From positions 1,237,868 to 1,301,867 of the forward strand of contig ML992507.1 in assembly GCA_010093995.1 (NCBI GenBank): 64,000 nucleotides of DNA. Reading direction: 5' to 3'. The position numbers and the translations under genes are program-made. Positions within the stretch are counted from its first letter, which is position 1. Every line of letters begins with the position of its first letter. Under the pieces are notes generated by a model. The model ran no database searches, was not told the DNA's origin, and worked only from the letters and a program-made list of their open reading frames with translations. Shown in pieces: positions 47,281 to 64,000 of the stretch. Source of the stretch: Elsinoe ampelina (Eukaryota).

Positions 47281-48480
47281 TACGGCCCCACATGTTCACA
47301 AAGTGCTTTAACATTGGCAAATGTTTTACAGCTGTTTCGGATTCAAGCCGGCCACCCCAGCCTTGGCGGAACGCTGAACGACCTTACGTCACCAAAATTG
47401 GCTAGCTAGAGGTCGAGATCGATTATTTGCTATATAGTCGTTTAAATAGCTAAATCTAGTCAGTTTTTAAAGCTTAAAAAAGGTATAATAGTTGTCTCTT
47501 TACTTCTATATATTACTATAGTTACTTACTGTCTTAATAAGGCTAAGCTAGCTAACCTTATTATTCTCCTTACTAACGGCTATAGTAACTACATAGTCTA
47601 CTATAAGCTATATATTACTTGCTTAACTATCTATAATATTTAATTATCTCTTAAGTTCTTTAGAGAGTTTTATTTTTCTATTTTAATATATATTTAGTAT
47701 ACTTAGTAGTTTACTTTCTTCCTCGAGGCCTAGCTCTTTACCTACCTTACTAATATACTAACTACTTATCTTAATAAGCTATAAGATTAGCTATTTAAAG
47801 AGTATAGTAAGAGGATTAAATTAATTACTATTTAAGAGGCTATTAAGCAATAGAAGTAGTCTTAAAAAGTTACTTAAAAAAAGGCTATAGAAAGAGATAA
47901 GGTTTTATATATAGCATAGTTAGAGAGGTATAAGAGCTAGCTAGCTAATATAATTATTTACTTAGATAAATCTAGCTATAATAAGTACTCTTACTAGAGG
48001 CGTTATAGCTAGTTACTAAAAGGTGTTAAATATAAGAATAGTTAGCTAAAGACTTATACTAAAAGGTAAAGCGTACTTCTAGCTATTATAACTAGAGAAT
48101 ACCTCGAAGGTATACTTATCTATTATAGCTTAATTATAGGCCTTATCTTCTAAGATTAGCTAGAGTATACTATACTACTATAACTTAAGCCTAGTATAAT
48201 TATAGTAATAGATAATACGTTAATCTAGTATATAGAAGAAGTATAAAGGATAGTTAAAGAGTATAGATTATACCTTAAGTACTTACCTTCTAATTTATTA
48301 GATTTTAATTCTATTAAGAAGAGCTTCTTAGTACTAAAGGCATAGGTAAAGAAGTATTATAACTTAGCCTCTAGCTATTAATCTTTTAGTAAATTCTTAG
48401 CTTATAGAGTTAGTTAGTATAGTAGTAAAGGCGCTTATAATTAGTTTAGGTACTATAGATATAATATAGAGTAAATAGAG
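47281..48480 (+). mobile_element. RIP-inactivated Tc1-like (DD34E) DNA transposon
   Basis: The de-RIPed plus strand gives LD(E)S(GC) near 47960, RRY(GW)(SP)KG, (W)SVL(P)AI, IV(M)DN(AS)I at about 48200-48225 and L(E)YLP..(SP)DFN(P)I(E)KSF at about 48275-48325, with 34 residues between D and E. The putative left end follows TA at 47281. Confidence 0.8.
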
Positions 48481-49297
48481 TAAATAGTATAAAGATAGAG
48501 GTAAGGTTAAGCTTATAAAAAAAGTACTAAGTCCTTATTAAAAACTCTATACTACTAGTACTATAAGCCTATACTACTCTACTAGCTTATCCGAGCTAGA
48601 TTATACTATCTAGTTTAGTAGCCGAGTTAGATTATACTAACTTATACGCCGAGATAGAGCGCTATTTAGCTTAGCTACTAAGATAGAGTATTTTAATATT
48701 AGTATAAGAGTAGTAAATTAAGCCTATCTTAGCTACTAAGCTAGATAGCCTATAGCTATATTAAGTTAAACTCTTTAGCTTTATTCTCTTTACTTAAAGG
48801 CTTAAACTCTAAAGGCTTCTACTACTTCTTAAACCTTAATATCTTTCTCTTAATCCTTATAAGTAACTTCTCTTTTAAACTCTATAACTTAGTCTACTTC
48901 TTTTCTAATACCTTATAAATACTATTAATATTAAATTTAGTATCTCTTAGGTAGTAGAAGGCTTAATTAAGCACTATATACTTACTCTTAAAGGCTAGCT
49001 TCTACTTTAGATACTTAAAAAAGTTAAATAACACCTTAGTAGTATTAAATTATAAGTATATTAGTAAGGCTAAGAAGGAGATAGTATACCTTATATATTT
49101 ATATTATATACCTATATAGTTACTAGTAAAGTTAATAGTGCTCTACTACTACTACTAAGTAGAGAGAGGTAAGGCTACTTCTTCTTAGTAATAGTCCTAT
49201 TAGTCTTTAATTTACTTAATTTAAGCACTAGAGAGCTATAAGTTAAAGAGTCTAATATAGTACACTTACTAGCTTAAGCTATAGCTATCTATATAAG

Positions 49298-51957
49298 TGT
49301 AAGGACTAACGTAGTAAGTATACTACGCTAGCTTACTCCGGAGATACTATTCTCTATAGAAGAATAAAACACTTCTCGCTTATAGAATAGATAGAGTAGA
49401 GATTAGTTTTACGACAATCGAGAGTATACTAGTATAACACCTATTCTACTCCTATATACTTGTCTTCCTAGCTCTAATATTCTATCTTTATTATAATTCT
49501 AATCTCTCTTATATTCTATTAGATAGAGCTATATAGATAAGATAGTACCCTATACTTAGCGCTAGCGAAACAACTAACTGCCGCTAGAGTAGCACTAGTA
49601 TAGACAACTCTCTAATAGCTTAGCTATTAGCGAGACATTTACTAAATTAGCTATAATCCTAGAGATAACTCCTATTAAAGATTACTAGGCTAGGGAAGAG
49701 CTAGCGCTAAGGCCGTACTATACTAATATAGCTTCTATAGGAAGTATAGCTAACATAGGAAATAATACTATATATAAAGTACTTCTTACTTATATCGCTT
49801 AGCTTAAGAATATACTTAGTAGTTGCTCCCTAGTTGTAGCGCTAGTACTATATAGTTGTTTTAATAATGTATAACTTAATAACATCTACCTAATAAACCT
49901 ATAAATCGTAAGAGAGTATATATTAAACTTATACTACTCTAAGGCCTTAGAGTCTACTATTATAGTAAGAGTTAAGGAATTTATATACATGTATAATAAT
50001 GTCTTTAAGATAGTACTAAATATCTACTTTAAAGAAGTTACTTAGTATTATATAGCTACTAGCTACTTAAAAGGTTAGCTTAGCTATAATTAGGACTTGT
50101 ATACTAAGAGTACTAGCGTTATACTCTTATAGAGCCTAATATAGTCCTAGCTTTAGGACTAAGCCTAGAGTTCTAAAAACTATAGTAATAGCTACGTAGT
50201 AAAGTTCTTTACATCGCGCTAGTATAGAGAATAGTCAATTACTAATTTCTATACGTTTCTCGATAGTTGTAAGTTCTATATTAAGATAGCACTACTCCTA
50301 AACGACGTCTACTATATATAGCTTATTACCTATACTACGCTAGAGCTACGCTTAGAAGTACTCTATTAGAGGAACCTACCCCTAATTAAGGTAGAACTCC
50401 TAGTATATCTATCCTGTTTAGAGTAGAACCTACTAGGCTACTTCGACTCTATATAGAGGTAGTATAAGCGTAACGCTAGAGAGAAGACTAATACTTTTAC
50501 TAAAAGGCCTCGCTATAACGAAGACTATAAGGGCCGAAAGGACTAGTAGAGTAGCGCTAATACTACCTCTATAGCTCCCCAACCTAGCGCTACTTACTCT
50601 TATAACATCTATAAGAGCCTAGACTATTATAAGAACTAACGTAGTAAGTACGCTATACTAGCTTACTCTAGAGATACTATTCTCTATAGGAGAATAAAAC
50701 ACTCCTCGCCTATAGAATAGATAGAGTAGAGATTAGTCTTATAGTAATCGAGAGTATACTAGTATAACACCTATTCTACTCCTATATACTTATCTTCCTA
50801 GCTCTAATATTCTATCTTTGTTATAATTCTAATCTCTCTTATATTCTATCGGATAGAGCTATATAGATAAGATAGTACCTCGTACTTAGCGCTAGTAAAA
50901 CGACTAACTACCGCTAGAGTAGTACTAGTATAGATAACTCTCTAATAGCTTAGCTATTAGCGAGACATTTACTAAATTAGCTATAACTCTAGAGATAACT
51001 CCTATTAAAGATTACTAGGCCGGGGAAGAGCTAGTACTAAGACTATACTACACTAATATAGCTTCTATAGGAAGTATAGCCGATACGGGAACTAATACTA
51101 TATACGAAGTACTTCTTACTTATATTACTTAGCTCGAGAATATACTTAGTAGTTACTTCCTAGTTATAGCGCCGGTGCTACGTAGTTGTTTCGATAATAT
51201 ATAACCTAATAACATTTGCCTAATAAACCTACAAATTGTAAGAGAGTATATACTAAACTTATGCTACTCTAAGGCCTTAGAGTCTACTATTATAGTAAGA
51301 GTTAAGGAATTTATACATATATATAATAACATCTTTAAGATAGTACTAAATATCTACTTTAAAGAAGTTACTTAGTACTATATAGCTACTAGCTACTTAA
51401 AAGGTTAGCTTAGCTATAATTAGGACTTATATACTAAGAGCGCTAGCGTTATACCCTTATAGAGCCTAATATAGTTCTAGCTTTAGAACTAAGTCTAGAG
51501 TCTCGAAAACTATAGTAATAGCTACGTAGTAAAGTTCTTTACGTCGCGCTAGCGTAGAGAATAGTCGATTACTAATTTCTATATATTCCTTAATAGTTGT
51601 AAGTCCTATATTAAGATAGCGCTACTCCTAGATAATGTCTACTATATATAGCTTATTACCTATACTACGCCGGAGCTATGCTTAGAAGTACTCTATTAGG
51701 GGAACCTACCCCTAATTAAGGTAGAACTTCTAGTATATCTATCCTGTTTAGAGTAGAACCTACCGGGCTACTCTAACTCTATATAAGGGTAGTATAAGTA
51801 TAACGCTAGAGAGAAGACTAATACTTTCGCTAAAAGGCCTTACTATAACAAAGACTATAAGGGCTAAAAGGACTAGTAGAGTAGCGCTAACGCTACCCCT
51901 ATAGCTCCCCGACCTAGCGCTACTTACTCTTATAATATCTATAAGAGCCTAGACTAT
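49298..51957 (+). repeat. Direct duplication of a 1330-bp LTR+gag unit (49298-50627 and 50628-51957)
   Basis: The copies align at a constant 1330-bp offset (gtagtaagta at 49311 and 50641; agactat ending at 50627 and 51957). The differences I checked are C/T and G/A transitions. Confidence 0.93.
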
Positions 51958-54900
51958 TAGGCGCTAAACTGTCCCTAGAAGGACTCTTTAAAACGGATAG
52001 TATCCTTACGTTTACTAATCCTAAGTAGCTCTAGCGTAATATAGAATATATACTAAATTCGCGCCGATGTTATAGTTAACCTACCTAAAGGCCCTATCGA
52101 AGGGGTAGCTCTAATAGATAGTAGCGCCGATAGTAACTTTATTAGCTAGTATTTTGCTATACGCTATTATATCGCCGTCGACCTCCTAGTAGTATACTAA
52201 GTACACGGCTTAGACAAATATAAATTAACTACCTATAGATATACTAAGTTAGCCTTCGCTATTAAGAATAGTAAAGGAATAATATAAGTGTCGCGCTAGT
52301 AGTTTAAAAGCGTTAATATAACTAGTTATAATCTTATATTAGGCCTACTATAGCTATTGTCCTATAACTCTAAGATTTAGTAGAGCGCTAGTACGTAGAG
52401 GCATTATACTAGCGCTATATAGGTATTAATCCTAGATATACTTTTCTTCTCCTAGGAGCTAAATTAGCCTAACGCCTAGCTCTACCTAGTATATGTACGC
52501 TAGGACGAACCTTGCGCCCTAACTCTACTATACTAGCTTAATAACTACGTAGATGTTTTTAATAAGAGTATAGTAATAGCGCTACTAAGTAATAATTTTA
52601 CTTACTCTATCGATATTAAAGAGAGAAAATAGCTACTCTAGGGACCTATCTACCCCCTCGGTAAGAAGGAGCTTTAGGTACTTCGAGAGTATATAGATAA
52701 TAGCTTAGTAATAGGTCGACTCTAGTATAGTACTAGCCCTACGGGGTCTTCTATCCTATTCGTCCCTAAGAAGGATAGTTTACTACGCCTATATATTAAC
52801 TATCGTAGGCTAAATAATGTTACTATTAAGAACTATTACCCCTTACCCCTAATTACTAAGATACTTAATTATATTAAGGGCGTATACTTATTTAGTAAGC
52901 TAGACCTTATAGATGTCTACTATAGAGTATACATCTAGCGTAGTAATAAATAGAAGATAGCGTTTCGCTATTACTATAGCTACTTTAAATATACTATTAT
53001 ACCTTTTAGCCTTACTAATACTCTAGCTATATTCTAGACTTATATATATTAGTACTTAAGTAGCTTAGTAGACTACTACTATATTATGTACCTAGACGAT
53101 ATTCTAATCTACGCTAGCGACAAGTAAGAGTATTACTAGACTATTAGGAGCGTACTAGACCGCCTATGTAAGAATAGCCTCTATATAAAACTAAAGAAGT
53201 ATATCTTTAAGGTAATATAGGTAGTATTTCTAGGCTATATTATTAGTAGTAATAATATTATAATAGAGTAGCCCTAGGTATAAGCTATTACTAACTAGCC
53301 TACCCCTACTAGCCTTAAGAAGTTATAAACCTTTCTTAGATTTGCTAATTTCTATTATTAATTTATTAAGGGCTTTTCCTATATAGCGCTATTACTAACT
53401 ATACTTATATAAGAGTTAGTCTAAAGGAAGTAAGTAGGCCTATTTCTATAGAGTAATAACGTAGTATAGGCCTTTAATAGGCTTAAAGCTACCTTTACGT
53501 AAGTGCCTATACTACGCTACTTTTTATTAGATAAGCTCCTCTAGCTTAAGACTAACGCTTTAGATTTTGTACTCTCCGGAGTAATCTCCTAGTAAAATAA
53601 AGATAATACCCCTACGTAATACTAGTACTCTATAGTGTTCTAGTCCCGGAAGCTATAAGATATAGAACTAAACTACATTACCTACGATAAAGAGCTTCTT
53701 ACTATTATAGAAGCGGCATAGTACTAGCGCTAGTACCTACTTAGCGCTACTACCCTAATTAAAGTTCTCTCTAACTATAATAACCTTAGGTATTTTCTAA
53801 CTACTAAGAAGCTTTTATAGCGCTAGGCCTACTACGCCGAGGTACTAGCGTAGTTTAATATTGTTATCTAGTACTATAGTAGAAAGACTAACCTAGCTAA
53901 TAGCCTATTATATAGGCCTAACTACTATAAGTATAAAGAAGGTATATAGGAAAAGCGCTATATATTAGTCTCTCTCTTAGAGTAAGCGTTATAAACGTAA
54001 AGTAAAGGAGTTATACCTATATCTATTATAGATAAGAAACCTAAAGCTAGTAGAGCCTAGAAAGATAGTAATAAAGCTAGTATAGCTTATATGCCTTAAA
54101 CTGCTCCCTAATGTAACGTGCTTATATAATTCTAGCGTACCTCTAGAATAGCGCCTATAAGTCTACCTATTACCTTAGGAGTACTATAGCTATACTAATA
54201 AGAGTTAGAGCCTCTAGAGTAAGAAGAGTAGCACCTAGAGAGTACTTATATAAATCTCTCTCTAAGCTTAACTAGCAATATTAAATTAGAATAATATATA
54301 TCTACCTTAGTATCCTAGGACATACTACTACTCGCCTAGGAAATAATAGAGAGCTAAGGGCATAAAGATAGTATAATGCCCGCGTAACTCTAGAATACCT
54401 CTAGTAGAAAGCCCGCTATAATTTTAAACTAGAGTTAGTAGATTACGCACCTCTATACTATATAAGTACTAGTAGATAAGACTATATATACCTCTTCTAC
54501 TTCTATGTCGCTCCGGGACCTTATCTATATAGTATAGTAAAGGGATACCTTTACTTATAGTAAGAAATAGAAACTTCTAAAAGAGAGAACCTTAACTAGT
54601 AATAGTGCTACCTCTAAGTAGAGCCTATCTAGCGATAGCTTACTCCGGAACGGAGATAGAGTATATATCCTAGAAGAAACTACCCTAAGAGTAGAGCTTA
54701 TATAGCGTAATTATAATAATCTCTTAGGGAGTTACTTTAGCTATATAAAGACTTACCTTAATATAAGAAGGAAGTACTAGTAGCTAGGTATATCCGTCGC
54801 TACGAAAGTGTATATCGAGCGCTACGATAGCTACTAAAGGTATAAGGTAATATAGTATAAGCCTTATAGCCTTCTATAACTCTTACTAATCCCGCCTATA

Positions 54901-55092
54901 CTCGAGGCCTTATAATACTAGTTACTCGATTTTATTACTAGCTTACTCCTAGTAGAGCTCTAGCCTAGTATTATTATAGATACAATTATTGTATATGTCT
55001 ATTACTTATCTAAGTTTAGTATCTATACGCCGACGTCGACTAAGCTTAACGCTAGGGACTTTACTAATCTATTTAAAATTAGAGTAGTTTTT
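50628..55092 (+). mobile_element. RIP-inactivated Ty3/Gypsy LTR retrotransposon (gag-PR-RT-RH-IN), truncated in integrase
   Basis: Protease ALIDS(G)ADSNFIS near 52110; RT GPIYPL, ILFVPKKD(G), YPLPLI and YLDDILIY near 53090; RNase H (E)T(D)A(S) near 53550; integrase LDFIT(G)L near 54930. Domain order is Gypsy-type. Confidence 0.92.
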
Positions 55093-55329
55093 AGGTAGAT
55101 ATAGTACTATATTAGGTAGAGGTTAGATATAAAAGCTTAGTAGAAAGGAGTTACCCTAGGTTAGGTACTATACTAAGGTAGGTAGGGTTAGTATATAGTT
55201 ATAGTATTACCCTTAGGGAGAGAGTACCTAACCTAGTACCTACCTAATAGTACCTAATAGGTTAGTAGTTAAAGCGCTTACTCTATAGCTTAGCGTGTTA
55301 CTATACCTTACAAATTTTTAGGCCTAACT

Positions 55330-57800
55330 TTATTACGCTACTTTATTACGTAAGGGAAGGTAGTAAGTAAAATATATAAATTATACTAGAAGTATAAATA
55401 CAATCTAGCTAGTAAATCCGCTAACGCTTTCTACTAGGATACTATTAACCTCTCTATGCTCTCTCTCTCTCTAATTTAGAGTAGTTATTATTACTATAGC
55501 TTAGTACTATAGTAATATTATCTAGTTAATCTATATTAGTCCTTAATAACAATTTAAGTAAATCGTTAGTATTAGTAGCCTTATTCTCTATCTCTAGTTC
55601 TATATTAATCCGTCCTAATAGCAAGGCTACTTTAAGCTTATACTTTAACATTATAAGCTACTAAATAGTTTAGGCTACTAATTTATACCTCCGCGTACTA
55701 ATAATATTCTTTATAATATTAAATACTTACTTAACTCTAACCCCTATAATTAGGATTACTAGAATATCTTTTGCTATATATAATAGTAATAGATATTCTT
55801 CCTTCTTCTCTTTCTACTACTATAAGATATTAAGTTTCTAAATATAGACTAGTAGTGTCGTAAGGTAGTCCTTACCTTCTTTAACTATAGTACGCTTCGA
55901 GGGAATAAATAAGAAGTATAGACTATTACTTTATAGTAATAGAGTATAACCTTACTCCTTTCGTTTTAGTTAGTTAAACTAGTCTCGTTACTAGTAATAT
56001 AATAGCTTAGGGGTAAAGGCTAGTAAAGTAATTAAGAGGTCTATCTTATTATACTAACGAAGGTACTATAAGAACTCCTTATAATAGTAGTCTTTATAGT
56101 AAAGTTCCTAAGTCTCTATATCCTAAGTATTATTAGCTACTACTTACTAGAAAGACTATAGGCGCTTATATTATATGCTATAAGCTTCTTAGAGGAGTTA
56201 AGAATTGTTATATAGTTATAGAGTATGCCCTTCCTGTCCTTAGTTTATATATAGTATTTCTTAAGCTTCTCTTGTCCCTTTACTACTATCTTTTATATAG
56301 TAGCTAGCTATATAGGTAGATTATTATAATTCTTAGTACTAATTAGGCCCTCTTTAATTTTGTCTAAGAAGTTAAAGAGTATATTATATATCGTCTATAT
56401 ATACTAGAGAAGAGGTTGGCTACTAGTACTTAGCTATATTATTACTTTCTTAAAGTTCTCTAGTATTACTATAATAGATTTAAGATACTACTACTTATTC
56501 GGATTAAGTAATAACTTAGTAAGGTTATAGTTATTAACGTTAGAGAGCAGTTTAGATATTAATACCTTAGAAGAAGTCCTTAGTACTTAGAGTATAGTCT
56601 TATTCTCGAGCTAATTCTTAATAAAAGGTTTAAGCTTTAATACTTACTTATATATATTATATGTTAAATTCTAGTGTATCTTAATATTATATATAACTTA
56701 GTACCTCTTCTTAGGTAGTAGATACTTCTAGAGGTCTATAAATTATTTAAACTATTATAGAGAACTATTAATTATAATATATATTATATAGAGCTTACTA
56801 ATATTAGAACGTAATAAAATAATATAATAAATGTTATATACCTTCTATAGTAAATTTAGAATAGAGACTAATATTATAATATCCTAGATATAGTAGTTTT
56901 ATAACCTCTCTACTATATTAATCTCTTTACTTGTCTTAAGTTTTAGATGCTTAATAATGTCCTATATAATAAGATTAATAATATATACTAGGTATAGAAT
57001 TATATTTTTCTTTATATTCTACTTAATATCTAGTATATCTAGGCTTCTTTCGAGAGACTCTCGGAGTGTTTTATTATTTAATATATTATCTACTATAACT
57101 ACAAGTAGTTATTGCTTAACCGATATATCTTTTAGTACCTATATTACCTTATTTACTATAGCTTTACTAGTATAGCAACCTCGAAGAAGTATTATTTCTA
57201 GGAGCTACTCTTATAATTACTATTAGTTATTAATAAAATAGCCTTTAATTATAATAAACCCTAAGTAGTTATTAGTAGACTATCTATCTAACGCTATTAA
57301 AAGCTTAGTGTTCTTACTAAGGTTAGAGAGTAGTAATTTTTATAACCTCTCGAATTATGCTACTAGTGTTACTTAAAAAAGAGTCTAGCTAGGTATAGTA
57401 ATATTAGGTCGGAGAAAGTAGAGGAATTAGCTAAAGGTAAGATACTTAACTATATAGAAAGACTAGTTATAGTTAGTAACTACGCGAATAAGCTTATAGT
57501 AGAAAGTGTCGATAGAGAATAGAGAGATAATTTAGTAAATGCTCTTTATATACTATTATAATTACTTAAGGGCTTTTTAGGTAGGGCTTTACTCGTAGCA
57601 GTACTTAACAACTATAGTACATTTCTAGGACTTAAGATGTCTCTCTATTACTTTATTACTAGTATAATAGTAAGTAGGATAAGTAAGTATATTACTATAC
57701 CTATTATAAATAACTTATAGTTCTCTATTATAAATCTTAGTAGCTTCTATAATATTTGCCTATAGACCTCTAGAACGTGCTTTAGAATTCTAATTTAGTA
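55330..57800 (-). mobile_element. RIP-inactivated hAT-family transposase
   Basis: The de-RIPed minus strand gives (S)IALD(GW)ST..LGFI.IKGYFI at about 57300-57225 and the C-terminal dimerisation motif AKDIL(A)I(P)I.GV(G)V(ER)VFN...RR at about 55780-55690. A possible BED-type C/H cluster lies near 57690-57630. Ends are not resolved. Confidence 0.8.
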
Positions 57801-59204
57801 TATTTTTCGTGCCTTCTCTATATATAGATACTATAATTGTTTAACTCTACTAGTCTTTCTAGACTTATTATAGAGGTTAATTCTTAGATCTCTTACTAGG
57901 TTAAAAAGGCAAGTATTTAAGAAGTTATAATTGTTATATCTTACTATTATATCTAATATTCTAAGCGGAGATTATAAAGCTATATAATTCTACTAGAATA
58001 GCTAGAGAGAAATATATAGTATCTCTAAGTTATAGGTCAAGTACTAACTTAAAGTTAGAAGCTTTAGACATGTCAATTAGTATAGATTATATTATTTAAT
58101 AAAGGTAAATAACTTATTATAGAATATTTAGTAACGTGTTTATAATACGTAATAATAAATTCTATACTATACTATAGAAACTTTAAAGTAAGAGGTATAT
58201 TAATTTCTATAGGCTAGACTTATATTATATAAGGGCTAAGGAATAGGTAATATAATTAAAATTAAAAGCATATCTATATTAGGGTAGAGTAGAAAATTTT
58301 TAAAATTAAAGGTATATCTATATTATAAAAAACCTACTAAAGCTATTAGCCCGCCGATGCTTTATTTACATTATACTACTAAACTAGTTACTAGAAGAAT
58401 TAGAACTATTAAGATCCTTAGGATTTAGAATTATCTAGCTCGTTCTACTAGCGTTTAACGCTATAGCGTATATTAAAGATTATAATCTAATCCTAGATAA
58501 GATTAAGATAGTAACGATTAAGTATATACTATATGTTAATAAGGTTAAAAATATTATTAGTCTAGGAGCTATTATACTAATACTTATTAGAGAATATAGT
58601 AGTATTAGATTAGGAATACTAATAAAGTTATAAGGGGTATTATAAGAGTAATAGGCCTTATAGCAAAGTTTAGAGCCTCTATTGTTATTATAGATATAAG
58701 TAGTCTACCTTTCCTCGCTATTAATAAATTACTTAGTTATATAGTAGATATAAGCTTTACACTAATATAAGTATAGTAGCCTAGCGTAGTTACTACGAGT
58801 TATAGTACAAAGCTAGTAGGGGATTAGATCTCCTAGGTTAGAATAGAGTTATATACGAGAAGCTATAATAATAAGAAAGAGAGGTTTTAGAAAGAAGAAT
58901 AAATAGGAACGAGATAGTATATATATCTAGTACCTCCTATTGTTTATAGTAATAATAGTAATAGAAATCTATCGTTAGAAGTAATAATATAGATAATTTA
59001 CTATTGTTAGAGGTAACAATTAGAAGTATAAATAATAATAGTAGCTATATAGAAAGAGATCTCGTTATAAAACTTAAATCTATAAAAGGGCTAGACTATA
59101 CTATAGATTAAACTACTTAGTAGTTAATTATAGTATAGAAAATCTACTAGTTAAAGCTAGTAAATTTATCTTCCTTAGTATCGACTATTTCCTTATCTTC
59201 TTTC

Positions 59205-59400
59205 TTATTATTATTCTTATTATTATTCTTATTATTATTCTTNNNNNNNNNNNNNNNNNNNNNNNNNNNNNNNNNNNNNNNNNNNNNNNNNNNNNNNNNN
59301 NNNNNNNTTATTATTCTTATTATTATTCTTATTATTATTCTTATTATTATTCTTATTATTATTCTTATTATTATTCTTATTATTATTCTTATTATTATTC
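59205..59400. repeat. (TTATTATTC)n microsatellite spanning an assembly gap (N at 59243-59307)
   Basis: The same 9-nt unit is present on both sides of 65 Ns. Confidence 0.95.
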
Positions 59401-60580
59401 TTCTTCTTATCTCTACTCTCTAAAGAACTCTCTACTTTAACTCTCTCTCTCTTATTAATAATCTTATTCTTATTAGAGAAAAACCTCTTAAACTTTGTAT
59501 ATTACTTATCTATCTCGTACTTATTAGCTAGTTTCTTAATCTTAGAGTTATAGTCTAGCTTATATACTTCTTTATACTTGTTATTGTTATTAGGCTTTAT
59601 ATATTTACCTTTATCTATAAGATAGATTAGCTCGAGTAGTTAATACTTAGCTAGAGGTGTAGAATTATAAGCTCTACTATTTATTAGTATACTAACGTAA
59701 TAATAATATATAATAATAATAGAGAACTTATTACTAGTTAGAATTAGAGATAGTAGTAAGCCTACTCTCCTTACTAAGTTTCTAGATAAACTTTAAGTAC
59801 TTCTTCTTAGTATTCTTATTAGTACCTTTATTAATAGTAAGCTTAGTAGCGCTAGCTATATAGATCTTACGCTTAAGCTTCTTAAGAATTCTACTAGAAC
59901 TATATATCTACTTAGCTACTCTTAATATGTTATTCTCCTTGCTAGACTTAGTAGTATAAGCTACCTTTACCTTTATAAGAACTTCTATATACTTTTAATA
60001 TATAGCAAATTTTCTAATACACTACTATTTAATATAGACTTTTCTAAACTTACTAGATAGCTATTTATCTATAATCTATTAGTGTTAAATGTAATAATAT
60101 AGTAGTATAATTATATAGCTTTACTAGGCGTCGAAATAGCGCTACTCTATTTCCTTAATCTTTTCTATAAGAAGTTCTACCTTTACTTCTTTACTAAGGT
60201 TCTAGACTTAAGTATTTATATTAAACTTCTTAAGCAAATTCCTCTTTATGCTATAATTAGTATCTCTAGCTACTTTAAGTGCCTTAACCTTAGCTAACTA
60301 TTAAGTATCTTTATCTCGGCGTATAATATTCTAAATATTCTACTTTAAAGACTTACTTAAACCTACTTTAAAACTAGTTAGACAACTACGATATACCTTA
60401 CTACCTTAACTACGCTAAAGGATCTAGTATTTGATTTTAGCCTACTTAGACCTAAAGCCCTATACTTATTGTTAAGCACTTAGCTTAGAAGCTTATAACT
60501 ATAGTAAGGTATTATTGTTAGGAAGACTACTAGGCTATCTCTAGCAGATAGAGGCTTACTAAGCCTTAGCATTAGCTATG

Positions 60581-60688
60581 GTACCTACTATAGTACCTAC
60601 TATAGCCTTAACTATAGTACCTACTATAGTATCTACTATAGTGTCTACTATAGTATCTACTGTAGTGTCTACTATAGTATCTACTATA
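60581..60688. repeat. 12-bp tandem repeat, about 9 degenerate copies (GTAYCTACTATA)
   Basis: gtacctactata gtacctactata gccttaactata gtacctactata gtatctactata gtgtctactata ... Confidence 0.85.
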
Positions 60689-61203
60689 ATAGGTCCCCTA
60701 GCCTAAACAAACAAAAGGCCTACCTCTAGGCCTTATTACCGTCATTAATTACATGCTATTATTACCTAAAGTACTACTATTAGGGTGCCACGAATAGAAA
60801 TATTACTCTAAATAGTCGAGTTATAAAGGAAAACACCTGTAGTTAGAAGCTCTATTTATAGATCTAGGTAAGCTAGTCCGTCTACTCCCGTTTTAGTCTA
60901 TAGTCTATAGCTAGTTAGGTCTAGTGTCGGGGGACACTATTCTATAGTCTAGAAGAGATCTAAAGACTCCTCTAGTAGCGAAGCCTAAAGCTTCGTTATC
61001 TTATAAAACTCCGTCCTATCTAGTGTATAAGGCTAAGACTACGTAGGTATTATATAAGCTAAACTCTATGCTTTAAACTATACTATACTATTTTTCTATA
61101 CTATGCCTCGCTATTCCGTACTATACTCTTAATATACTATTCTATTGTGCTATATTCGAAGGAGAAGGGAGAGTGTTATAGTTAAGTATCGAGTTAGAAG
61201 TAG

Positions 61204-63999
61204 TTAGGGGTAGTTATTATAGTTTAGTAACACGTCGAGGTAAGTCTTATTAACGTAGTCGAACGCGTGTTAAAGGACTTAGAAGAGCGAGCTATAGTAG
61301 TTAGTAGGTATATAGGTGTTATATCTCTATCTCTTACGAGAACTAAAGCTACTACTATACTTAGCTAGGCTACTCCCTAGTATCTCCTTGTCCTATATAG
61401 ACTTAAGCTCGAATTTTAAGTAGCGCTTCTTAAAGTTCTACGCCGCTGCCTTAGCCGCTAGACTAGCTATCTCGATCTTCTCGCGTCTAATGTAGTTCTC
61501 GTACTTAAGGAGATTATAGGCAAGCATTATATCGATCCTAGCTGCCCTTTCTTTGTCGCTCTTACTAATAGTGCCTAGTATAATAAATCTCTTAGAGGTA
61601 GAGGTGCTCCTTTAGATAGACTAATAGGGGGTCTCTAGGAGCTATATATACTTACGTAGAGGCAGCTAGATACTTAACTTAGGCTAAGCAGCTGCGCCTC
61701 TTTATTAGAAGGCCTTTTATGTAAAGGCTTCTTCGATGTGCTAGATTATAGTATATATTTTCTTCTCGACCTTTAGGTCGGCTAGGTTGCCCTTAAGAAG
61801 CTTAGTATAGATTACTAGAAAGCTCTTAAAGTCGGCTAGGTCTATATTAAACTTGTTGGCGGTATTAGTTAGGAGTTTAACGAGGGAGTTGCTTATTAAG
61901 CTAGTATTAAAGTTCTTGCCCTTAGCTACGTAGGCTTTTATTATAATAAAAGTGCTATTAATAAAGTTAATAAAGCTTAGAAGCTATAGGTTAGGTAGCA
62001 CTATTAGGTCGTCGTTGTTATTAGAGATAGTTCCTCTAAACTTAACTCTAGTTATATCTACCTTAGAGTTAGATTCTACATCTAAGGCTAACGCCCTACT
62101 ATAGCTCTCCTCTAGTACTACCTCTTTATAACGAGGCGGCCTACGCTAGTTATTTACTAAGTAGAGGTAGGTAAAACTAGCTATAGGCTTATCCTCGGGT
62201 TCTATAGAGAATAGAGTGTAGTTATTAGGCGAAGGGTCCCTAGAGATAGAGGCGCCGGTATAGATCGAGTTACTAGTGTACTTCTACTTACAACAATTGT
62301 TGTTAAATATGTTAGCCTAGGTACCGTCCTTGTTTAAGGACTTCGGATCGTTAAAATCGTATATGGCCTCCCTAGAGCTTATAAAACTCTTAATTTTGTC
62401 GTAAATGTATTTAGTGACTAAGTTAACCTAGGGCCTAGCGCGGTCTACGATCTATTATAGGAGCTTAACGTGTAGCTTATCGACGGACCTATAGTTAATA
62501 ATAGTAGGGATATAGATCTTCTTTAGGTCGATATAGCCTTTATATAGCTCGAAAAGGTCTAATTAATTATTGTAGAAGAGTAGGCGCTAGTTAGACTTAA
62601 TTATGTCTCTCCTATTAACTTATAAGATATTATAGTTCTAGACCTATATTCCGCCTAGTACATAGACGCCACGGAGGACTAAAACCCTCTAAGTATTGTC
62701 CCTCGGGGAGATATAGAAGTAGAGTAGGTCTATGTTTTTATATAACAATCTAAGTACTCTATTCTTAAAGATGTCTAGGTAGACCTTACTATACTAAGTT
62801 CTCGAGATTATCTTCTTATATATAAGCTTAATAATTTAGCCAAGGATAAAGTCGCTTATGTTATAGACGCTAGTAGAAGGCATAGCGTTAGGCGTAACTA
62901 AGCTTTAGAAGGCGTTATAAACATATTTAACATAGATAATTTAGGTACTACTATTAACGCGAACTATTTCCTCGTACTCTTCTACTAGAGCTAGACTAAT
63001 GTCCGGAGTTTACCTACGTGTAACGGCTATGCTAGTTGCTATAGCTTCGACTATAGTAGTTGCAAAAAGAGTTAGAAAGTTAAATTCGTAGGGCTAGTAA
63101 TCGAGCTTAGTTCTTAGGTGTTAGTTAATATTTTTAGTAGATAGGGTAAGTTAGACTATAATTGCCTAGGCAATTCTAGTGTTAATATTAATTCCGTATA
63201 GCTATATATATAGCTACGAATTATGTTAAGTTAATATAGTAGAGTCTTTATTATTACGTCGCGTAATACAAGAGATCTCTATAGTTATTATAGCAATATT
63301 AAACTATACTACCCCCCTCTATAGAGTAGAGCCTAGCTATATAAGTATTATATCTAATCTTATAGAGCTATTCTTAAAGTTGTCTATTTTACAAGGGACG
63401 TACTCTATAGCTAGGAAGGAGTTATAGACAGTGTCGGCGTTATATAGTGTGTCTTTATAAAGTCTAGCTTCTAGTACTACCTTAAACACTATATGTTTAT
63501 TATGTCTACTAATGTTGTTATTCTTAACCTATTCTATCTATCCCTTAATTGTCCTTTCCTCTAAGATATAGCCTTCTAGAGCTAAGAAGACTAAGTAGGT
63601 TTAATAGCCTAACTACTTATTACTAGAGTCGATTCTAAGCTCGGCTAATAGGTCTACTACGCATCGGGATGTTCCTTCTAAGGAGCGTATATTCTTGCGA
63701 GTAACTATAAGCTTCTTCTCTCTTAACTCGTCTATAAGTTCCTCTATCGATACTATTGTCCTAATGTTATTAATGTGCCTCTACTTGCCTAGTCTAATAA
63801 CTCTTGCTACGTTTAGTATGCTTACGTTCTAATCCTCTATTACTATCCTTCTTAGGGCTCTCTCCTTGCCTTCCGCTTACTCCTAGTCGCGTATCTAGTT
63901 AGTAATAAGCTCCGCTGCCGCGTGCCTTTACTAATCGAGAAATTCCGTAGCCTCTTTTAAGGTTAGGAATATTAGGCTAAACTTAATAGTGAGCTAGTA
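61204..63999 (-). pseudogene. RIP-mutated intronless ORF of >930 codons, unidentified protein, runs off the window
   Basis: One frame reads as protein throughout with no frameshift. About 55 stops by hand count, all TAA/TAG; I saw no Gln or Trp codons, as expected if every CAA/CAG/TGG was converted by RIP. Confidence 0.75.
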
Positions 64000-64000
64000 C

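Follow-up and report, generated by a model that had tools for sequence, protein, structure and literature searches.

The closest described counterparts of the locus analysed here are the RIP-degraded, unclassifiable repeat families known from ascomycetes, such as those of Stagonospora nodorum SN15 reported by Hane and Oliver (2010; PMC3017866). In Table 3 of that paper, the match columns of the families X96, X48, X28 and R38 are blank even for the deRIP consensus, and family X0, with a length of 3862 bp, is listed with one NR match.

Fungal RIP blocks are commonly dismissed as beyond reading. The one described here still contains a legible frame of about 930 codons. This frame lies at the end of the window, by which we mean the whole stretch of DNA analysed, 64,000 nucleotides in length. 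In the GC-rich part of the window (1–47 kb), the GC content is 0.41–0.58 per 2-kb bin, and 14 of the 19 long ORFs scanned carry ordinary core-gene domains, with none in the remaining 5 at E ≤ 1e-5. An AT-rich block starts at about 47.3 kb and reaches the window end, with a GC content of 0.22–0.37 from 48 kb onward. The TpA/ApT index of the block is 1.5–2.4 and the (CpA+TpG)/(ApC+GpT) index, from 48001 on, 0.03–0.34, compared with 0.53–0.69 and 1.15–1.27 in the genic reference at 44–47 kb; the block indices are the classical signature of fungal repeat-induced point mutation (RIP). The features to which we refer below are as follows.

47300–64000, no strand: RIP block containing the fossil ORF, from base composition and RIP indices
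50602–55101, plus strand: RIP-mutated Ty3/Gypsy pol, used as a positive control, from Pfam and protein matches
60576–60688, no strand: 12-nt minisatellite CTATAGTATCTA, 9.4 copies, abutting the repeat unit of the ORF, TRF score 149
60690–61203, minus strand: non-coding 3' flank of the repeated unit of the ORF, from variant contigs and depth steps
61204–63999, minus strand: fossil coding frame, 932 codons or longer, from the fewest stops of six frames, shuffles and the codon-position chi2

Core genes stand up to the edge of the RIP block (1–47000) and include an epoxide hydrolase, MFS transporters, a G-patch/DUF1604 gene, a KA1 kinase, CK2 beta, Leo1, Mob1, MIX23, DNA ligase I and a BRCT protein, whose gene ends at about 47.0 kb, at the border of the block. 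Within the block, an assembly gap of 65 N (59243–59307) falls in a further 12-nt minisatellite with the unit TTCTTATTATTA (59202–59410).

The stretch 61204–63999 is a real fossil coding frame, well beyond chance. Its minus-strand frame holds 55 stops in 932 codons (5.9%), namely 20 TAA, 35 TAG and 0 TGA, and not a single CAA, CAG or TGG. The other five frames contain 69, 70, 102, 135 and 136 stops, the two lowest of these, on the plus strand, exceeding the proposed frame by only about 25%. Among 1000 dinucleotide-preserving shuffles, none had 55 or fewer stops in any frame (best-of-six mean 82.1, minimum 59), and when nucleotides are tabulated by codon position the fossil frame has a chi2 of 119.0, compared with 6.3 on average and at most 24.1 in 300 shuffles. 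Codon position 1 is purine-rich (41% A, 22.5% G), which is a coding-type pattern. In sliding windows of 300 codons, the fossil frame has 13–19 stops at 61401–63500, the minimum of the whole RIP block; the true pol frame of the adjoining Ty3/Gypsy element has 21–31.

These counts agree with the preliminary description of the locus, which had quoted six peptides, all of them present in the minus-strand translation starting at 63999, and a TAA/TAG share of about 6%, and which had proposed comparing the stop density with that of the other frames (69–136 stops in those five versus 55). Its use of the missing Gln and Trp codons as the sign of a gene stands in part: there are none in the fossil frame, but the other five frames are nearly free of them as well (Gln 2–19, Trp 0–2). 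Because CpA and TpG are lost on both strands, this depletion is not frame-specific, and its presence in all six frames makes the argument weaker than had been assumed.

Between about 61300 and 64000 the codon periodicity is strong; at positions below 61300 it is weak. The frame reaches the window edge without closing, so the ORF must exceed 932 codons and its 5' end lies beyond 64000. When the frame is continued downstream of 61204, a coordinate that marks the last stop counted in the preliminary description, the stop density climbs to about 10% by hand count, which places the real end of the ORF near 61200–61300.

Over 61–64 kb, TpA/ApT is 1.95–2.22 and (CpA+TpG)/(ApC+GpT) is 0.24–0.34, and it is by these two indices, together with the transition-type variation among its multiple copies, that the region qualifies as a RIP-affected repeat. 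The GC content of the fossil ORF is 36.7%, and its observed/expected dinucleotide values (CA 0.37, TG 0.17, TA 1.71, CG 1.04) point to CpA to TpA as the main reaction, on both strands. This reaction turns CAA, CAG and TGG into TAA or TAG, His and Cys into Tyr, and Met into Ile, and the composition of the translation fits it (stops 5.9%, Tyr 6.2%, His 1.0%, Cys 0.5%, Met 0.2%). From the TpA count of the ORF, 473, we estimate that some 300–360 RIP changes may have occurred in these 2.8 kb, altering about a quarter of the residues. Low stop density, periodicity, loss of CpA and TpG and excess of TpA together bear out the earlier proposal of a real gene hit by RIP.

Other copies read TA where the window has CG at 60817–60818, 60879–60880, 61190–61191, 61260–61261, 61288–61289, 61337–61338 and 62013–62014; these differences are paired adjacent C>T and G>A changes. 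Elsewhere in the block, a tandem duplication of 1330 bp in perfect register and with 90.5% identity (49300–50629 and 50630–51959) sits upstream of the translated Gypsy pol stretch and enters its start. Transitions account for 125 of the 126 differences between its two halves, and the unmutated base stands mainly in CpG (73 counts) versus CpA (10), which suggests either saturation of CpA, with CpG hit secondarily, or decay of methylated CpG.

The copy state of the stretch was read from short contigs of two DNA runs of one sample (X1 and X2), possibly the source of the assembly, placed on 60001–64000 at a likeness of at least 80% (170 contigs in X1, 190 in X2). The stretch 61204–63999 is multicopy in the source genome, in versions that differ almost only by transitions. 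Several contig versions occur per place, as the claim of a multicopy gene had implied, and 341 of the 344 variant places in X1 are transitions (C>T 106, G>A 126, A>G 65, T>C 44); at 62596–62797, for example, an exact contig coexists with one that carries 19 differences. The mean summed depth in X1 is about 634 over 61207–64000, averaged across 21 bins (range 310–1400 over the ORF), and the depths of the three listed contigs that match the window exactly are 125–159. The depth ratio amounts to about 4 copy-equivalents of the ORF stretch, depth itself not being a copy number. A second copy of the stretch was not found inside the 64-kb window, and no contigs of two presumed RNA runs (X3 and X6) fall on it, a result that says nothing about expression.

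Variant contigs also cover 60756–60958 (9 differences) and 61135–61375 (18 differences), so that the repeated unit extends at least 450 nt beyond the ORF. The summed depth steps from about 2000 (60537–60670) to about 700 (60671–60804) and about 340 (60805–60938), and the unit probably ends near 60690–60750. A repeat search of the window, which contains one end region of the unit, gave no convincing terminal structure, whether terminal repeats or target-site duplications. The minisatellite at 60576–60688 is part of, or borders, another repeat of higher copy number. That repeat, at 60001–60670, is far more abundant than the ORF (summed depth 1576–6759, recorded over 60001–60536 in both X1 and X2, versus 310–1400), and its contigs diverge at 60465–60470 and at 60660–60689, with breaks at 60660 and 60689.

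Near the depth step, some 500 nt beyond the 3' end of the ORF and on the same strand, there is a hairpin (60698–60732, minus strand) with a GC-rich 7-bp stem and a 6-nt loop, followed after 13 nt by CTAG at 60701–60698; the arrangement is possibly due to chance. Helitrons end at the 3' side in a hairpin followed by a terminal CTRR and begin at the 5' side with TC, and we take the hairpin with CTAG to resemble such a 3' end.

The adjoining Ty3/Gypsy element shows what can be recognised after RIP. Its pol, read through stops, matches RVT_1 (1.1e-12), RT_RNaseH_2 (2.3e-14) and RT_RNaseH (1.9e-13) in Pfam, and gives 51 protein matches, the best at 8.8e-103 with 39% identity. Yet it is more damaged than the fossil ORF, with 132 stops in 1500 codons (8.8%) and a GC content of 33.8%, against 5.9% and 36.7%; the methods therefore see through RIP of the level found in the fossil ORF. 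The earlier statement that a neighbour stays recognisable after equal or heavier RIP is thus correct for this element, detected by the same searches. A minus-strand relic at about 55800–57600, with a GC content of about 25%, is more degraded still and matches no Pfam family even at E ≤ 10; its central and C-terminal motifs, judged by eye, look like those of a hAT transposase. Since Pfam misses this relic, a negative Pfam result is no proof of absence, and heavy RIP can hide transposase domains from profile searches.

All searches for the identity of the protein used the translation of one RIP-mutated copy with TAA and TAG read as X; reading them as Gln or Trp was avoided, as it would add little signal and amount to a self-chosen sequence. 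Pfam gave 0 families at E ≤ 10 for the whole translation and for six overlapping 300-residue pieces, with no reverse transcriptase domain among them, and 0 families for the three plus frames of the stretch. Profiles of DDE, hAT, MULE, Tc1 and CACTA transposases likewise returned 0 families, and they missed the hAT-like relic at 55.8–57.6 kb as well. A Rep (HUH) or PIF1-type helicase was seen in the 932 codons by neither Pfam nor phmmer. The absence of RT, RNase H, integrase, DDE, hAT, helicase and recombinase families that had been noted by eye is therefore reproduced with Pfam. DUF3435 and DUF3723 were found neither in the ORF nor in the minus frames of 55.7–61.3 kb nor in the 19 long ORFs of 1–47 kb.

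Sequence libraries gave the same picture. The ORF translation had 0 matches in PDB sequences, PHROGs and NCBIfam, 0 in a word-indexed protein collection at near and shorter lengths, and, with phmmer at E ≤ 0.001, 0 among 1,835,955,588 representatives, public viral proteins included. None of 14 candidate stretches in IMG/VR and none of 416 pattern matches in JGI metagenome contigs was confirmed as a relative. Inspection by eye for YxDD, HUH, Walker A and the MULE CxWH pattern yielded nothing convincing and is not counted as evidence. The single-sequence AlphaFold2 model of the X-read protein is unusable (mean pLDDT 32.3, pTM 0.22, all residues below 50).

On balance we consider it fairly probable that what we see is the main ORF, killed by RIP, of a dispersed and unclassified repeat, which would most probably be a transposable element of this fungus. 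It lies among other RIP-killed mobile elements, beside the Ty3/Gypsy element. An unclassified mobile repeat is the most economical reading of a unit that lies among dead transposons, includes a non-coding flank and brought up no orthologue of a conserved host gene. We use the term transposable element on the strength of copy number and setting, because no catalytic signature of a transposase, RT, helicase or recombinase was found, and in the present data a lineage-specific gene that had undergone segmental duplication would look no different.

Such a lineage-specific host gene, or one carried as cargo by a Starship or another large mobile element, duplicated and then hit by RIP, is in our view rather unlikely. 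The seemingly low copy number (about 4 copy-equivalents) and the lack of a mobility domain in the ORF by Pfam would suit it, and RIP-degraded repeats of endogenous genes are documented, in four classes, in the S. nodorum report (PMC3017866). Against this, orthologues of a host gene conserved outside the species should be recognisable despite RIP, and there are 0 in 1.84 billion representatives; the repeat is also located among ordinary transposon relics. Starship cargo is further disfavoured by the lack of a DUF3435 or DUF3723 match and by 0 captain-like proteins among the 19 long ORFs of the GC-rich 47 kb. The suggestion in the preliminary description that the gene was cargo of a large element accordingly finds no support in the window, where neither domain was detected and the 19 ORFs are core-type or family-less; the block continues past the window. 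Its other suggestion, a mycovirus protein, fares no better. For an endogenised gene of a mycovirus or other virus, amplified in the genome before RIP acted on it, one can cite the length and the failure to match any cellular or transposon family, but phmmer returned nothing from a library that holds public viral proteins, IMG/VR confirmed 0 of 14, PHROGs gave 0, and Pfam gave 0 with its polymerase and capsid models included, which makes a viral origin very improbable.

A divergent member of a known superfamily (e.g., MULE, CACTA, a Helitron accessory ORF or a Crypton), masked by RIP below detection, seems to us quite unlikely. The escape of the nearby hAT-like relic from Pfam reveals a limit of the method that works in its favour, as does the Helitron-like 3' hairpin with CTAG at the depth step of the repeat. 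However, the fossil ORF is less damaged than the readily detected Gypsy control, and its six overlapping pieces brought up 0 Pfam families even at E ≤ 10. For a Helitron RepHel, a PIF1-type helicase would be expected within 932 codons and none is seen, and a 7-bp hairpin with CTAG within 3 kb is not beyond chance. We give hardly any weight to the remaining view, that there is no gene and RIP-skewed composition has produced the low stop density by accident. It can draw on the missing or near-missing Gln and Trp codons of all six frames and on the two plus frames with only 69–70 stops, but 0 of 1000 shuffles reach 55 stops, the chi2 of 119 far exceeds the shuffle maximum of 24.1, and the frame has the lowest stop density of the entire RIP block; this view is close to refuted.

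Under the preferred reading, a dispersed mobile repeat, the element would have reached more than one copy, whereupon RIP would have mutated C to T on both strands, at CpA first and at CpG secondarily, until every Gln and Trp codon had become TAA or TAG and the gene was silenced for good. Both the existence of the fossil gene and its presence in several copies are observations; for the protein, we infer a role in the element's own propagation, perhaps as a replication protein or transposase whose family is absent from Pfam. Alternatively, it may be the product of a second ORF in a larger element that has its catalytic gene outside the window. As a fossil, the gene has no present function in the cell. 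There is also a small chance that the ORF encoded a mobility protein of a transposable element family outside all described superfamilies or, less likely, a gene of an unknown virus, of which only RIP-killed copies survive in this lineage; survival in this form alone would explain why it has no relative among the 1.84 billion representatives.

Taken as it stands, the locus is a relic of an ordinary kind, a RIP-killed ORF of a repeat whose protein matches nothing known. What sets it apart is that a legible fossil ORF matches nothing, whereas its more damaged Gypsy neighbour is identified at once. Should other copies allow a deRIP consensus, an undescribed fungal repeat family and its protein could be given a name; a consensus that falls into a known family would make the locus one more routine RIP relic.

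With Helitrons, the locus shares an ORF with a downstream hairpin and CTAG on one strand near a change of depth, but the fossil ORF is without a Rep (HUH)/PIF1 helicase, the terminal match is short and compatible with chance, and the 5' end lies outside the window. With the adjoining Ty3/Gypsy element (50.6–55.1 kb) it has in common the block, the mutation spectrum and the conversion of Gln and Trp codons to TAA and TAG; the Ty3/Gypsy element keeps its RVT_1 and RNase H domains and 51 homologues, whereas the fossil ORF has none by the same methods. The likeness to the S. nodorum SN15 families X0, X28, X48, X96 and R38, as these are presented in PMC3017866, extends to the multicopy state, C>T and G>A differences between copies, TpA excess and loss of CpA and TpG, and to zero or nearly zero database matches. 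The query here is a single mutated copy and that of the S. nodorum report a deRIP consensus (PMC3017866), so that nil matches are weaker evidence in the present case. Unlike what is reported there for those families, the fossil ORF is still readable over at least 932 codons and retains strong codon periodicity, at an apparently low copy number.
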